This document shows, piece after piece, positions 1 through 5,078 of a stretch of 5,266 bases of DNA; the stretch's first letter is position 1, and the number at the start of each line of letters is the position of its first letter. Origin of the DNA: a virus (lineage: Duplodnaviria > Heunggongvirae > Uroviricota > Caudoviricetes); the IMG/VR virus record IMGVR_UViG_2671180283_000015. One strand, given 5' to 3'. The translations under genes and the position numbers were made by a program. The notes beneath the pieces are model-generated. The model saw only the letters and a list, made by a program, of their open reading frames with translations, did no database searches and was not told the origin of the DNA.

Positions 1-18
1 TTTTTTTGTCCATAAGAA

Positions 19-38
19 AGCCCCTCCGGAGAGGGGCT
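19..38 (-). terminator. GC-rich hairpin (AGCCCCTC, CGGA loop, GAGGGGCT), possible weak intrinsic terminator
   Basis: An 8-bp perfect stem; on the minus strand it is followed by TTCTTAT, an imperfect U-tract. Confidence 0.3.
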
Positions 39-430
39 GGAGAGTGGCGCTATGTGCCATTGCATGGTGCCGGGTGCCTCCCGGTGAATTCAGTACCAGC
101 ACCTGAATCCGCGATTATCCCATATACCTACTCGCTGATTGCCCCTCCGCACAGGGGGATTCACCATGCCAGTTTCTTTTAACAAACTCCCCGCAAACCA
201 GACAACAGTCAACCGCCTGAATTGTGAAGTATTTAAAAATTTCTCCCGCTAACTGATACCCGGCTAACAGTCTGGCGTTTTCTTTTTCAGCAACGGGAAA
301 GCAGCAACCACCACACCCGCCACCAGCACACCGTCAGCCAGCACTGACATTATCCGGCTGCTGCAATGCCATTCACAAAAACAGTAAGCAATCACTTTTT
401 ACCGTAACCGGTGATAATCCAGATATGTAT

Positions 431-787
431 CTACCCCAGATGAGTAATCCGAAGTTCATCCATACCACAGGTCCTGGCTATTCTGTTGTACTCCTGAACA
501 AGAGCAAATAATTCTGAATTAGCCACCATGAACTCATCGCAAACCCTCTGTATAGCATCACTATTCAGAATAATAACGTCTCTTCCCGAAAGACGATCAG
601 GAGTACAGAACAAAACTGTCAAACGGCTGAAGGCCTTTGCTCGTTCTGCATTGACTATATCAATACGCTGCCTAAGGATGAAACACCCCGACGCCTCATC
701 AATATTCACTCTACCCACACCATATGAATGATAAATATTTAATGCTGAAAAAACCATTAGACCGTATAACAAACACTCAATCAACAC
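431..787 (-). CDS. Hypothetical protein in the AT-rich cargo slot (doubtful)
   Basis: The 118-aa frame is open but has a non-ATG first codon; the first ATG (757..755) has no clear Shine-Dalgarno sequence. It carries 3 AGA, 2 AGG and 3 ATA codons, and shows no recognisable motif. Confidence 0.3.
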   Translation of the reverse strand: MLIECLLYGLMVFSALNIYHSYGVGRVNIDEASGCFILRQRIDIVNAERAKAFSRLTVLFCTPDRLSGRDVIILNSDAIQRVCDEFMVANSELFALVQEYNRIARTCGMDELRITHLG

Positions 788-1071: not shown

Positions 1072-1147
1072 TGGTGGCCCTTGCTGGATTTGAACCAGCG
1101 ACCTGGCGATTATGAGTCGCTCGCTCTCACCACTGAGCTAAAGGGCC
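1072..1147 (-). tRNA. tRNA with CAU anticodon, probably tRNA-Ile2 (lysidine, AUA decoder), alternatively tRNA-Met
   Basis: Manual fold: acceptor GGCCCTT/AAGGGCC, D-arm GCTC-AGTGGTGA-GAGC, anticodon loop CTCATAA, T-arm GCTGG-TTCAAAT-CCAGC, encoded CCA. Near-identical to the recalled E. coli ileX sequence. Confidence 0.85.
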
Positions 1148-1196: not shown

Positions 1197-2246
1197 TCAA
1201 ACGATTAAATCCTGAACTTCCCTGACTGTCTGCTCAAAACGTCCGGTCTCCAGTTCAACGCCAATCGCACGACGCCCCAGTGCCATCGCCGCTTTTACCG
1301 TTGAACCCGACCCCATGAAAAAATCTGCAACCAGGTCACCCGGACGACTGCTTGCGCTGATTATCTGCTGCAGCATTTCTGCCGGTTTTTCGCACGGATG
1401 TTTCCCGGGATAGAACTGCACCGGTTTATGCGTCCACACATCGGTATACGGCACCTGCACCGTCACGCCAAAATACCGCCGCAGATGTTTATATTCACTC
1501 AGCAGCTCCGCATACTGCCGGTTCAGTGAGGTATACGTATCCACCAGCTGGTGGTGGAGCTTTTCCAGTTCACCACGCCGATGCTTCTCTTCTGCCACCC
1601 GGGCAAACAGCGCCTGTAATTTCAGATAATCGCTTTCATTCGGTAGCTGCCACTGACTGGCACTGAACCAGTGCGACACCATGTTTTTCTTTCCTGTGGC
1701 ATCTGCAATCTGTTTTGCCGTTATCCCCAGGGCCGCGCGCGCATCACGAAAGTAAGAAATCAGCGGGGCCATCACATGCTGTTTCAGTGCACTGCCCTTC
1801 GCCGCATACCCGGCATCTTTCGGACGATACGGCCCCTGATAATGTTCCGCGAACAGAATGCGCTCTGTGGCGGGGAAATACGCCCGCAGGCTTTCCTTGT
1901 TGCATCCGTTCCAGCGTCCGGACGGCTTCGCCCAGATAATATGGTTCAGCACACTGAAGCGTTCACGCATCATGATTTCGATATCAGATGCCAGGCGATG
2001 ACCACAGAACAGGTAAAGACTTCCGGCAGGTTTCAGCACCCGCCAGAACTGCGCCAGACACTGGTCCAGCCACTTCAGGTAATCATCGTCGCCCTTCCAC
2101 TGGTTATCCCAGCCCTCAGGCTTCACTTTAAAGTACGGCGGGTCCGTGACTATCAGGTCAACAGAATTTTCGGGTAACGACCGGATAAATTCCAGGCAGT
2201 CGGCGTTGATTAACTCACAACTGGATATTTTTACAGTATTAAGCAT
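1197..2246 (-). CDS. Orphan beta-class amino-methyltransferase, probably an N6-adenine DNA methyltransferase
   Basis: The 349-aa product has motif IV DPPY at residues 35-38 and motif I FFMGSGST near residue 310. The IV-before-I order defines the beta class, and DPPY favours N6-adenine. No endonuclease gene is adjacent. The Shine-Dalgarno sequence is weak (AGG about 13 nt upstream). Confidence 0.9.
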   Translation of the reverse strand: MLNTVKISSCELINADCLEFIRSLPENSVDLIVTDPPYFKVKPEGWDNQWKGDDDYLKWLDQCLAQFWRVLKPAGSLYLFCGHRLASDIEIMMRERFSVLNHIIWAKPSGRWNGCNKESLRAYFPATERILFAEHYQGPYRPKDAGYAAKGSALKQHVMAPLISYFRDARAALGITAKQIADATGKKNMVSHWFSASQWQLPNESDYLKLQALFARVAEEKHRRGELEKLHHQLVDTYTSLNRQYAELLSEYKHLRRYFGVTVQVPYTDVWTHKPVQFYPGKHPCEKPAEMLQQIISASSRPGDLVADFFMGSGSTVKAAMALGRRAIGVELETGRFEQTVREVQDLIV

Positions 2247-2382: not shown

Positions 2383-2410
2383 AAATAAAAAAGCCTTCAC
2401 TGCGGAAGGC
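2383..2410 (-). terminator. Intrinsic terminator immediately after the 65-aa ORF
   Basis: On the minus strand: GCCTTC (2410..2405), loop CGCAGT, GAAGGC (2398..2393), then TTTTTTATTT (2392..2383). Confidence 0.6.
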
Positions 2411-2594
2411 GTCTGTAACAACCGAACTGATAGTCTGCCAGACCCGCCATAACCAGCTGGGTCAGTATTAACTGGCAGCGTTCGCGTGAAAGGTAAGTAT
2501 TCTGCGCTATCTCCCCGACTGTCGCCGGTTCGGTAACGCTTAATTCATTAAACACCACTCTGGCGGTTTCTGTCATATCCTGCTGTTTTAGCAT
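2397..2594 (-). CDS. Hypothetical 65-aa protein, possibly a small winged-helix-like DNA-binding protein
   Basis: ATG at 2594 is preceded by AAGGGA 8-10 nt upstream. Product MLKQQDMTETARVVFNELSVTEPATVGEIAQNTYLSRERCQLILTQLVMAGLADYQFGCYRRLPQ. The stop codon sits inside the following terminator hairpin. The fold call is pattern-based only. The longer 94-aa version in the ORF track needs a GTG start with no ribosome-binding site. Confidence 0.45.
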   Translation of the reverse strand: MLKQQDMTETARVVFNELSVTEPATVGEIAQNTYLSRERCQLILTQLVMAGLADYQFGCYRRLPQ

Positions 2595-2716
2595 GTCTTT
2601 TTCCCTTTTCCGGTTAACGTGACACACCAATAACTCTTGTCGAAAAAGCCAGCAAGCTGAAAGACAGGTATTCACCGCCACCAGCGCGTTTACTGTACTG
2701 ACGCGATTTCAGTCAT

Positions 2717-2738
2717 AAAAAACCCGCCAGGCGGCGGG
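2717..2738 (-). terminator. Intrinsic terminator (tR'-like) about 45-65 nt downstream of the late promoter start
   Basis: On the minus strand: CCCGCC (2738..2733), loop GCCT, GGCGGG (2728..2723), then TTTTTT (2722..2717). An all-GC 6-bp stem followed by a U-tract. Confidence 0.65.
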
Positions 2739-2780
2739 GTGTAAAAAATCTTCTAACGTCAGGCATAAAACGCCCATCGT

Positions 2781-2818
2781 TAGGGCAAATTTACCACAGA
2801 TTCGGGAAAAATCAACAA
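2781..2818 (-). promoter_or_regulatory. pR'-type late promoter with a sigma70-dependent promoter-proximal pause element (Q engagement site)
   Basis: The minus strand reads TTGATT (2815..2810), a 16-nt spacer, TGgTAAATT (extended -10; hexamer 2793..2788), tgccct, then AACGATGGG (2781..2773). The core GGTAAATTTG...AACGATGGG matches the recalled lambda pR' -10 and initial transcribed pause-inducing sequence. Predicted +1 is near 2781. Confidence 0.7.
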
Positions 2819-2820
2819 CA

Positions 2821-3642
2821 CTATCGCGTTACCCTCTTTAACTGCCGCTCCGCCCATGCCTCTTCAATGTCAAACCGAACCACCAACGTATCGTAAAAGC
2901 GTTTCACTGATTTTTTCCACGTATCAAGCGTGATAGCACTCGTCACTTTGCGTATGGCATTAAATGCCTCCGTTGATGGTAGTCTTTCACAGCCACGACC
3001 ACCACAACGCTGGCAGTCTCTGATAACAGGCATACCACGTTTTACCGACTCTTCACGATGAATGGCGACACCACGCCCACGGCAGTCTTTACAGGCAGTG
3101 GAAATCTCCCCCTTCCCTTTACATTCAGGACAAGAAACTTTCACCACCTCCCGAATTTTTTTCCATTCTTCCCAGTAAGACGGATACACACCTTTCGTAC
3201 ACTTTGCCCATACTGGCGGCTTGCCATCCGGATACTGAACCTTGTTTGTAAAAACCTCGCTTTCAATAAATTTTTTTCCGTGACAGCAGGGGCACTGTTT
3301 TTTGCTCGCCGCGCTACGGGCATAATCTTCAAACGCATACGAAGCCATAATACGCATCACTGCCGGTTTTATTTCTGCCGGGAGTTTTCTTAACGCCGCC
3401 ACGCGATCACACCGACTGAGTGCATATTCTGTCAGCAATTCTGTTGCCCGCTCTCTGTCATTCATACTAATGCCCATTTTCCCAAGGAACGCAGAAAACC
3501 CCATCTCAGCCCGATTCTGTGTCATGCCCTGCGCGGCCATCACATCAGTGATACTCAGCGCATCTTTCGACGTTGAGGCCGATGCATCAGTCAGGCCGGG
3601 GGATTTTGGGGAGTAGTATTTCGGTAAATCTTCCAGTTTCAT
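2821..3642 (-). CDS. Q: Late-gene antiterminator Q (lambda-Q family) with an expanded CxxCxGxG zinc-binding region
   Basis: The 273-aa product shares N-terminal (KYYSPKSP...TDVMAAQGM) and C-terminal (TWKKSVKRFYDTLVV...VTR) blocks with lambda Q as recalled. The centre carries four CxxCxG-type repeats (CPCCHG, CPECKGKG, CKDCRGRG, CQRCGGRG). A pR'-like promoter lies immediately downstream. Confidence 0.85.
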   Translation of the reverse strand: MKLEDLPKYYSPKSPGLTDASASTSKDALSITDVMAAQGMTQNRAEMGFSAFLGKMGISMNDRERATELLTEYALSRCDRVAALRKLPAEIKPAVMRIMASYAFEDYARSAASKKQCPCCHGKKFIESEVFTNKVQYPDGKPPVWAKCTKGVYPSYWEEWKKIREVVKVSCPECKGKGEISTACKDCRGRGVAIHREESVKRGMPVIRDCQRCGGRGCERLPSTEAFNAIRKVTSAITLDTWKKSVKRFYDTLVVRFDIEEAWAERQLKRVTR

Positions 3643-4019
3643 TTTTTGACCTGCCCTTCAAGCATTATGGGGTAAATCTTCACCCCCAGACGTCCACCAG
3701 ATACTGGCTGAGCACGAACGATATTGATTTCATCAAACTGCTCATCGTCCATTAGCAACCCCGCATGCGTCAGCGCATCCAGCGGCGCTTTCAGAATATT
3801 GTCCAGGTCACGGCGGCGCTTATCCGGTGGTTCTGCAATAATTTTTATTGCCAGCCGTCCGGACAGGCTTAATTTCAAGTGCTGCTGGCGAACAATAAGC
3901 GCCACTGCCCGGCGATAACGCTCCCCGGCTTTTGATACAAAATATGTGCTGCCACGGCGTCGCCAGTAAGTGTTCACCGTCGGCGGGTAAGGCAAAACAA
4001 ATTCTATGCGTTCGGTCAT
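3639..4019 (-). CDS. rusA: RusA-family Holliday junction resolvase (crossover junction endodeoxyribonuclease)
   Basis: The 126-aa product has the RusA signature blocks PDKRRRDLDN...PLDALTHAGLLMDDEQ, matching the recalled E. coli RusA sequence PDRRRRDLDN...FDALTKAGFWLDDAQ. Its ATG at 4019 abuts the upstream stop, and its TGA overlaps the Q start as ATGA. Confidence 0.9.
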   Translation of the reverse strand: MTERIEFVLPYPPTVNTYWRRRGSTYFVSKAGERYRRAVALIVRQQHLKLSLSGRLAIKIIAEPPDKRRRDLDNILKAPLDALTHAGLLMDDEQFDEINIVRAQPVSGGRLGVKIYPIMLEGQVKK

Positions 4020-5078
4020 TTATGCTTTCCACTTCAGAACACCCGAATTTCTCGCGTGCATTAAAAAACGAATCAGCAACAACAGCTGACTGCCGTGTTT
4101 TTCTTCAAAATCTTTTACTCCGGCATGTAGTTTGTTATGGCATTTACGGCACAACGGAATAACAAACAAATCGTCAGCCTTTGTTCCCATCCCTCCCAGT
4201 CCATGACCAATGATGTGATGCGGATCATCTGCCTGATTACCGCACGTCATGCATTTCTGCGTTTTTACCCAGCGCGTGTATACAGGCATCTCTTCCCGTT
4301 GTGGTTTCTGGCGCTGGAGGTACTGAGCCGGAGACTCCGGATCAACGGCGATGCTTACTAACGTCTTTTCCTGGGGTGGGGGCTGTTGCTGGTGGACGTG
4401 AAGTGGCAGCGCAATATTTTTTGTGCGCTGCTTCAGTATGCTGATGGCTGTCTGTTCTCCCGGTACGATGTCACTCTCACGGTATACGGAGCGGATTTTT
4501 TCCACCGGTAATCCCAGCGAACGACGCGCTACTGCCTCAGGTAGTGCATCCACCACCTGATTGCAGGCCGCCCACCAGGATAATTCGGCCAGCGATAACT
4601 CCCTCTCCTGCGTACCGCTTATTGCGTGACGGATGACGTCAATCATCCAGGCAACCAGATTCTGCTGAGCAAGTTGATCGAGTGATTCTGATGTCTGGTT
4701 GCGCAGCTGGTTGTCACAGTGCCAGCACAACACCATCGCGCCGGTACCGTAACGGTGAATGACTGTTTCGCTGTGATGATAATCGCCGTGTGGCCACTGG
4801 CAGGATTTCACGTGACGTAATAACCAGTCAGACAGTGCACCTGCACCACCTGCTGCACGAATTACCCGCTCATCGCTGAAAAATGGTAGTAATGTTTTAT
4901 CCTCAGCCAACGGCTGGCTAACGGCTGCAACGACGCCGGACGGAAGACTGCGCATGTTTTTGGGTTCCGGTTCCACCAATATTCTGCCGTTATGGAATAC
5001 TGACATTGATTCACGGTCTGGCTTAACGATAACCAGACCGAGTTCCGGTACCAGAACAGGTCGAAGTAATACCCGCAC
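4020..5078 (-). CDS. 352-aa nin-region protein with a C-terminal HNH-like Zn/nuclease motif (DUF968/YdfU-like, tentative)
   Basis: Long ORF with a GTG start at 5078 preceded by GGAGG (5083-5087, 4-nt spacer). The C-terminus reads CMTCGNQADDPHHIIGH...LCRKCHNKLH, a CxxC..HH..CxxCH pattern resembling HNH nucleases; an N-terminal CWHC cluster is also present. Its stop TAA is directly followed by the rusA ATG. The family assignment is from memory of Qin-prophage YdfU and is unverified. Confidence 0.75.
   Translation of the reverse strand: MRVLLRPVLVPELGLVIVKPDRESMSVFHNGRILVEPEPKNMRSLPSGVVAAVSQPLAEDKTLLPFFSDERVIRAAGGAGALSDWLLRHVKSCQWPHGDYHHSETVIHRYGTGAMVLCWHCDNQLRNQTSESLDQLAQQNLVAWMIDVIRHAISGTQERELSLAELSWWAACNQVVDALPEAVARRSLGLPVEKIRSVYRESDIVPGEQTAISILKQRTKNIALPLHVHQQQPPPQEKTLVSIAVDPESPAQYLQRQKPQREEMPVYTRWVKTQKCMTCGNQADDPHHIIGHGLGGMGTKADDLFVIPLCRKCHNKLHAGVKDFEEKHGSQLLLLIRFLMHARNSGVLKWKA

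Follow-up and report, generated by a model that had tools for sequence, protein, structure and literature searches.

Why a Q antiterminator should carry four CxxCxG-type cysteine repeats where lambda Q carries two, and what the additional pair might do, is the question raised by a gene in a 5,266-nucleotide stretch of viral DNA (IMG/VR record IMGVR_UViG_2671180283_000015; hereafter the window, meaning the whole stretch). From the sequence alone, the original prediction had regarded the product of this gene (window Q) as a lambda-like Q protein that may carry a duplicated zinc-binding module in its centre. Our analysis indicates that the gene, from a lambdoid Escherichia coli prophage, probably encodes a working late-gene antiterminator of the lambda Q type and that the first two repeats most likely form a second Cys4 site. 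Homology, fold, motif correspondence and promoter layout were compared directly, and from there we infer how the cysteines may pair on zinc and what the inserted segment might do.

Window Q and its central insert

The gene and the parts of its product are listed here, the repeats being called knuckles 1 to 4; the boundaries of the helix-turn-helix (HTH) and of the body were carried over from the lambda Q definitions in PMC9388147.

2821..3642, minus strand: Q antiterminator gene, 273 residues plus stop codon (open reading frame list, Pfam Antiterm and lambda Q PDB matches)
3463..3642, minus strand: N-terminal segment, residues 1-60, homologue of the lambda Q nozzle, aligned to lambda 1-60 (role from PMC9388147)
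3304..3462, minus strand: first half of the "body" helical bundle, residues 61-113, aligned to lambda 61-113; model helices 60-80 and 92-108
3097..3303, minus strand: insert relative to lambda Q, residues 114-182, with knuckle 1, a 12+12-residue predicted beta-hairpin with a variable tip, and knuckle 2
3271..3294, minus strand: knuckle 1, CPCCHGKK, residues 117-124 (motif scan); C117 and C120 invariant
3109..3132, minus strand: knuckle 2, CPECKGKG, residues 171-178 (motif scan); C171, C174 and G176 invariant
2989..3096, minus strand: lambda-type zinc ribbon "arm" with knuckles 3 and 4, residues 183-218, aligned to lambda 117-152
3070..3093, minus strand: knuckle 3, CKDCRGRG, residues 184-191, equivalent to lambda C118/C121
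2992..3015, minus strand: knuckle 4, CQRCGGRG, residues 210-217, equivalent to lambda C144/C147
2824..2988, minus strand: second body half with HTH and C-terminal helix, residues 219-273, aligned to lambda 153-207; model helices 223-233 and 239-272

Window Q matches the Pfam family Antiterm (PF03589) at 165.2 bits (3.8e-49; cut-off 26.7) and, over residues 1-273, the family phrog_127, "anti-termination protein Q-like" (3e-111). A phmmer comparison with the lambda Q chain 7ubm_Q (2.9e-39) covers both flanking blocks, including the N-terminal segment and the C-terminal helix. Pfam reported only Antiterm and a DnaJ motif on the protein, with no match to the Q21- and Q82-type antiterminators, which are unrelated Q families. 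A prophage of E. coli G1/2 encodes a protein with 100% identity to window Q, where it is annotated "antitermination protein," and the 1 kb around the gene (window 2700-3700) is 99.9% identical to the prophage in that strain and others. Antitermination and zinc binding are putative functions here, assigned to window Q by homology with lambda Q.

Outside the insert, window Q is homologous end to end with lambda Q (PDB 4MO1 and 7UBJ-7UBN; PF03589), to which it is about 30% identical. HMMER alignment with the lambda Q structure 7ubm pairs residues 1-113 with lambda 1-113 and residues 183-273 with lambda 117-207, leaving a central gap of about 69 residues, which in window Q holds two knuckles and a basic beta-hairpin and which lambda Q lacks. 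The overall difference in length is 66 residues, lambda Q having 207 (NC_001416), so that the predicted excess of about 65 residues and its central position both hold, as do the lambda-like N- and C-terminal blocks, which the alignment, the Pfam Antiterm match and the predicted fold (closest to 7ubn_Q) all support. A motif scan of both proteins likewise bore out four CxxCxG repeats against two in lambda Q (CRDCHGTG and CGRCKGVG), with the Q zinc finger itself forming part of the repeat-bearing centre of window Q. Among 200,000 shuffled versions of window Q, none contained three or more such motifs.

Position profiles for each knuckle with its flanks, built from 135 four-knuckle (long-form) sequences, show which pair corresponds to that of lambda. 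The first lambda knuckle scored +36 bits on the knuckle-3 profile and about −19 on those of knuckles 1 and 2, the second scored +41 bits on the knuckle-4 profile, and on all non-matching profiles the lambda knuckles fell between about −16 and −26 bits. C184, C187, C210 and C213 are the equivalents of lambda C118, C121, C144 and C147 and are invariant among homologues; a second, independent short form (representative P0176) has the C-x-C variant specific to knuckle 3. The spacing from knuckle 3 to knuckle 4 is fixed at 25-26 residues in long forms (26 in lambda), that from knuckle 2 to knuckle 3 is fixed at 13, and that from knuckle 1 to knuckle 2 is 54 in window Q and ranges from 14 to 63 across the 135 long forms. 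The lambda knuckles are therefore knuckles 3 and 4, and the insert comprises residues from about 114 to 182, that is, knuckles 1 and 2 with a spacer of variable length.

In a 60-sequence alignment that covers several enterobacterial genera and has a mean column identity of 74%, none of the eight motif cysteines varies. At the base of the hairpin, F125, I126, V130, F131, V163, E165 and V169 are nearly invariant, and the tip is variable in sequence and modelled with lower confidence. The insert carries a net charge of +6, and the whole arm of window Q carries +11 versus +3 for that of lambda.

The suggestion of a duplicated zinc-binding module stands only at the level of the motif. The added length is indeed a cysteine-knuckle module lying in the zinc-ribbon arm. 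BLASTP of the insert against the lambda-type ribbon aligned only a 10-residue knuckle (E = 0.009). Because only the knuckle aligns, and because the two halves differ in spacing and secondary structure, duplication of the entire module is unsupported. Serial duplication of a 13- to 14-residue knuckle unit is plausible from the sequences, because minimal forms such as P0126 show spacings of 14, 13 and 26.

Several variants of the knuckle series were also observed. Many distant long forms (P0123, P0127, P0130, P0134 and others) have a knuckle 3 that is one residue shorter, C-x-C-x-G-x-G. A plain count of CxxC motifs makes such proteins appear to have three repeats, and we rejected a "three-repeat" class among the representatives, as both cysteines of knuckle 3 are kept there. 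Representative P0189 (223 residues) appears to keep only a knuckle-2-like motif and knuckle 4, lacking knuckle 1 and reading IILAAGAG where the knuckle-3 cysteines would stand; either knuckle 4 can take knuckle 2 as its partner instead, or the alignment is locally wrong. P0001 (337 residues) has six knuckles through an extra N-terminal copy of knuckles 1 and 2; as the single member of its kind, on a 1.8-kb contig, it is probably an assembly or gene-call artefact.

Probable pairing of the knuckles on zinc

An AlphaFold2 model of window Q, computed from a 60-sequence alignment, reached a mean predicted local distance difference test score of 80.6. Its top eight fold matches in the PDB are all lambda Q structures, the best being 7ubn_Q from the NusA-engaged loading complex (E = 3.5e-13; template modelling score 0.77 normalised on lambda Q). 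The model of free window Q is nearer to this NusA-engaged form than to free or pre-engaged lambda Q, and its N-terminal helices are folded, the same segment being disordered in free lambda Q.

Zinc pairing was read from the DSSP strings of the models rather than from Cys-Cys distances. In the first part of the arm, the order is strand 114-116, knuckle 1, strand 125-136, a short tip helix, strand 159-170 and knuckle 2; in the second, it is strand 179-181, knuckle 3, strand 192-194, helix 196-202, strand 207-209 and knuckle 4. A model of the arm alone gave the same pattern as the full-length model. The two matched 12-residue strands, 125-136 and 159-170, are most simply read as a hairpin, which would therefore bring knuckles 1 and 2 together at its base, and the variable spacing between these two knuckles is what a hairpin linking the halves of a single ribbon would lead one to expect. 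Knuckles 3 and 4 enclose a strand-helix-strand unit that mirrors the B1-H3-B2 arm of lambda Q (PMC9388147). Because the hairpin base would join knuckles 1 and 2 and the lambda-like arm holds knuckles 3 and 4, the models point to two adjacent Cys4 ribbons (1+2 and 3+4). In this likeliest reading, an additional, independent Cys4 zinc site made of knuckles 1 and 2 lies beside the lambda-type ribbon of knuckles 3 and 4, and each monomer would hold two zinc ions.

The main alternative is that the four knuckles fold as in the cysteine-rich domain of DnaJ (PF00684), with outer (1+4) and inner (2+3) zinc sites, so that the lambda site would be re-partnered in long forms while antitermination stayed unchanged. 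A phage-genome paper reports DnaJ-like CXXCXGXG motifs in a lambda Q-like protein (PMC5313236), and window Q has four such repeats, the first ending in K instead of G (CPCCHGKK). PF00684 scores 30.0 bits on window Q, below its gathering cut-off of 32.7, and 35.4 bits on QuuQ of E. coli K-12, which passes; the two-knuckle arm of lambda Q also matches the profile (23 bits). On the Pfam DnaJ profile, the lambda pair falls on DnaJ knuckles 2 and 3, and knuckles 3 and 4 of long forms fall on the same positions. A PDB-derived profile aligns knuckles 2-3 of window Q with DnaJ knuckles 3-4 instead, and anti-TRAP also matches knuckles 2-3 of window Q. The inner pair of DnaJ, knuckles 2 and 3, shares one zinc and its knuckles 3 and 4 have no zinc in common, and in anti-TRAP two adjacent knuckles share one zinc. 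The sequence analogies with anti-TRAP and DnaJ, then, point both ways on pairing. Window Q has no J domain or chaperone context, and it differs from DnaJ in its knuckle spacings and in its likely adjacent pairing (1+2, 3+4) in place of the nested one (1+4, 2+3). We regard DnaJ-like pairing as unlikely, and retain two adjacent Cys4 ribbons as the preferred reading.

The late promoter and predicted loading of Q

The elements of a late switch follow the Q gene on the minus strand.

2788..2815, minus strand: PR'-like late promoter, −35 TTGATT (2815-2810), 16-nucleotide spacer, −10 TAAATT (2793-2788)
2809-2801, minus strand: presumed Q-binding element TTTCCCGAA, placed in the spacer as in lambda
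2773..2781, minus strand: AACGATGGG, −10-like sigma-dependent pause element at the predicted transcript start (homology)
2713..2738, minus strand: tR'-like intrinsic terminator, GC-rich hairpin CCCGCCGCCTGGCGGG and T run (terminator scan)

Read 3' of Q on the minus strand, the order is TTGATT, spacer, TAAATT, TGCCCT and AACGATGGG, and the terminator hairpin lies about 45-65 nucleotides past the predicted transcript start. The promoter was found by alignment with lambda PR' and the Qin promoter. A generic sigma-70 scan did not call it, and the assignment therefore rests on homology. The −10 TAAATT is identical, at equal spacing, in lambda, P22 and Qin, and AACGATGGG is identical and equally spaced from the −10 in lambda, P22, Qin, mEp460 and a Klebsiella phage. 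The annotated qut and P-late features of P22 agree with the layout in the window, and equivalent terminator hairpins lie 3' of the Q genes of Qin, mEp460, P22 and ES18. The −10, the invariant pause element and the downstream terminator thus uphold the lambda-like promoter of the original prediction, and the region appears, as a sequence-level match to the PR' regions of lambda, P22 and Qin, to be a lambda-like late switch.

The lambda promoter shares the whole layout (−35, Q-binding element in the spacer, TAAATT, AACGATGGG and terminator) but differs in two respects: its first terminator is much farther from the promoter than that of the window, and its spacer has TATTGAATAAAATTGGG where the spacer of the window begins TTTCCCGAA. 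The latter element is common to the window, Klebsiella phage ST974-OXA48phi18.2 and Erwinia phage vB_EhrS_59, whose long-form Q proteins are 62% and 52% identical to window Q, respectively, which makes it a candidate Q-binding element for this subclade. A spacer unlike that of lambda and yet common to related long-form Q promoters fits Q-specific recognition. No longer or additional DNA element was found at long-form promoters, the architecture of which equals that of short-form promoters.

Counterparts of all functional parts of lambda Q were found in window Q by alignment. In lambda Q, the HTH belongs to the body (residues 61-113 and 153-207); the arm (114-152), a zinc ribbon, meets the Q-binding element at positions 11-13; the zinc-binding domain of the RNA polymerase beta' subunit is touched by residues 110-112, 117 and 122-126; and the N-terminal segment, disordered when free, refolds into a nozzle in the RNA-exit channel (PMC9388147). 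By homology with lambda Q, window Q would use its HTH body and zinc-ribbon arm to bind the Q-binding element that lies in the PR'-like promoter spacer, 3' of its own gene, and would load onto RNA polymerase stalled at the AACGAT sigma-dependent pause. Its N-terminal 60 residues may then refold into a nozzle in the RNA-exit channel, and the terminator at 2738-2713 would no longer keep the polymerase from the late genes, i.e., those for the methylase, tRNAs, lysis and morphogenesis.

In lambda Q numbering, the insertion point falls after residue 113 and before residue 117, at the body-arm junction and inside the beta'-contacting patch. Because of this position, the insert may create a new contact with RNA polymerase or nucleic acid during loading or modify an existing one, and the extra ribbon could serve as a structural platform that holds the variable basic hairpin towards either of them. 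A more speculative reading, less likely than not, is that the loading geometry of long-form Q departs from that of textbook lambda Q, for example because nascent RNA, upstream DNA or RNA polymerase is contacted at an extra point or because dependence on NusA has changed.

Alternatively, the insert might be an autonomous DnaJ-like or anti-TRAP-like protein-binding module with a second activity beyond antitermination, such as binding a host protein or causing broad toxicity. Its sequence does resemble the zinc modules of DnaJ and anti-TRAP, which mediate protein binding, some pipelines name the homologue P0031 "chaperone protein DnaJ," and overexpression of the Q-like protein AntQ of Gifsy-1 is globally toxic (PMC4825925). 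However, the resemblance is limited to the knuckle motif, and neither a J domain nor any other chaperone domain was found in window Q: no match to a J domain or DnaJ C-terminal domain was obtained with Pfam or NCBIfam, the NCBIfam DnaJ score being 24.7 bits against a cut-off of 377. Moreover, the two-knuckle arm of lambda gives a similar DnaJ match and yet contacts DNA and RNA polymerase, and the gene context is that of a standard Q-PR'-tR' late switch. A second activity of this kind is very improbable, and a role for the insert within antitermination remains the preferred reading.

The other features of the window surround this switch.

4020-5078: DUF968/HNH gene, preceding rusA
3639-4019, minus strand: RusA resolvase gene, upstream of Q
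2397-2681, minus strand: 94-residue open reading frame just past the tR'-like terminator (phrog_331; weak TrmB-type winged-helix match, E = 0.0065)
1197-2246, minus strand: N6/N4 DNA methylase gene
895-971 and 1072-1147, minus strand: two tRNA genes, Arg(TCT) and a CAT-anticodon tRNA (Met according to ARAGORN)
431-787, minus strand: 118-residue open reading frame (phrog_2873, 1.7e-70; no Pfam or NCBIfam match)
8-198, minus strand: small RNA STnc100 (RF02076), full-length Rfam match, 138 bits versus a gathering score of 47

Together they give the window the standard layout of a lambdoid prophage, from nin region through Q to late operon. In the E. coli G1/2 copy of this prophage region, 2397-2681 is annotated as a shorter, 65-residue hypothetical protein and the tRNA pair as tRNA-Arg and tRNA-Ile. 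The succession of Q, methylase and tRNA genes is also that of Stx2 phages, in which stx2 follows further along; no stx gene lies within the window.

Distribution of the four-knuckle form

The original prediction implied that four knuckles are unusual, and this did not stand, as four is the commoner state: QuuQ of K-12 has it, as do many characterised phages, and about 46% of the complete E. coli genomes carry it. The exact window protein occurs on 620 contigs, and its 90%-identity cluster, named "antitermination protein," has 4648 members; 109 of 112 full-length close homologues have four CxxCxG motifs. By megablast, the window Q gene type is present in 2495 of 5426 complete E. coli genomes (46%), the four-knuckle type of K-12 Qin ydfT/quuQ in 2471 (46%), and the lambda short type in 1361 (25%), so that each four-knuckle type tested is about twice as frequent as the lambda form. 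Of the 50%-identity representatives listed, clearly more are long than short, a count biased by seeding the search with a long form. Among evenly sampled rows of 249 matching phage records, about half are long (ES18 gp73, ST104 gp23, Fels-1, mEp460, Evi and Stx2c phages) and the other half have the 621-bp short form (lambda, P22 and HK97). Precomputed Pfam annotations place PF03589 and PF00684 together on long-form Q proteins. The four-repeat architecture is thus already catalogued and is the majority state of the family, of which lambda Q is the shorter, less common form.

One of these relatives is YdfT/QuuQ of the K-12 Qin prophage (b1559; 250 residues; with relatives in mEp460 and Stx2c phages), on which Pfam reports both Antiterm and the DnaJ central domain. 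It has four knuckles like window Q, the same fixed spacings after knuckle 2 (13 and 26 residues), a DUF968/YdfU neighbour and the same promoter and pause type, but is 44% identical to window Q, has a knuckle 1-2 hairpin about 20 residues shorter and has a different spacer (Q-binding element). The Q proteins of Salmonella phages ES18 (gp73), ST104 (gp23) and Fels-1 (250-271 residues) also have the central insert, and their genes directly precede a late promoter, terminator and lysis genes. They are 38-45% identical to window Q, and the window's form of the AACGAT element is missing from their late promoters.

That window Q is a decaying cryptic-prophage remnant with functionless extra repeats is scarcely credible: the gene does lie in a prophage, its K-12 homologue is in the cryptic Qin element and occasional relatives are truncated or one knuckle short (P0004), but the reading frame is intact, its start is translationally coupled (the start codon overlaps the rusA stop in ATGA), homologues of 55-70% identity from Escherichia, Salmonella, Klebsiella, Enterobacter and Serratia keep all eight cysteines and the hairpin base with little or no change, and the four-knuckle form is found in viable phages, namely ES18, ST104, mEp460, Evi and Stx2 phages.

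As a discovery, window Q has little value, since both the protein and the way it is built are already on record, in databases, in E. coli K-12 and in many phage genomes. Its modest interest lies in the mechanism. In the literature searched, which did not include subscription journals, we found no description of the four-knuckle form or of a role for the extra ribbon, and all structural and mechanistic work found on the lambda-type Q family used the two-knuckle lambda form. Relatives of window Q lie upstream of stx2 in some Shiga-toxin phages, one being Stx2_EH1910, which matches the window at 93% DNA identity overall, over a part that includes a gene annotated quuQ. Engagement of RNA polymerase by the long arm could therefore bear on toxin expression. 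If long-form Q does load differently from lambda Q, the commonest form of a classic regulator would be mechanistically uncharacterised.
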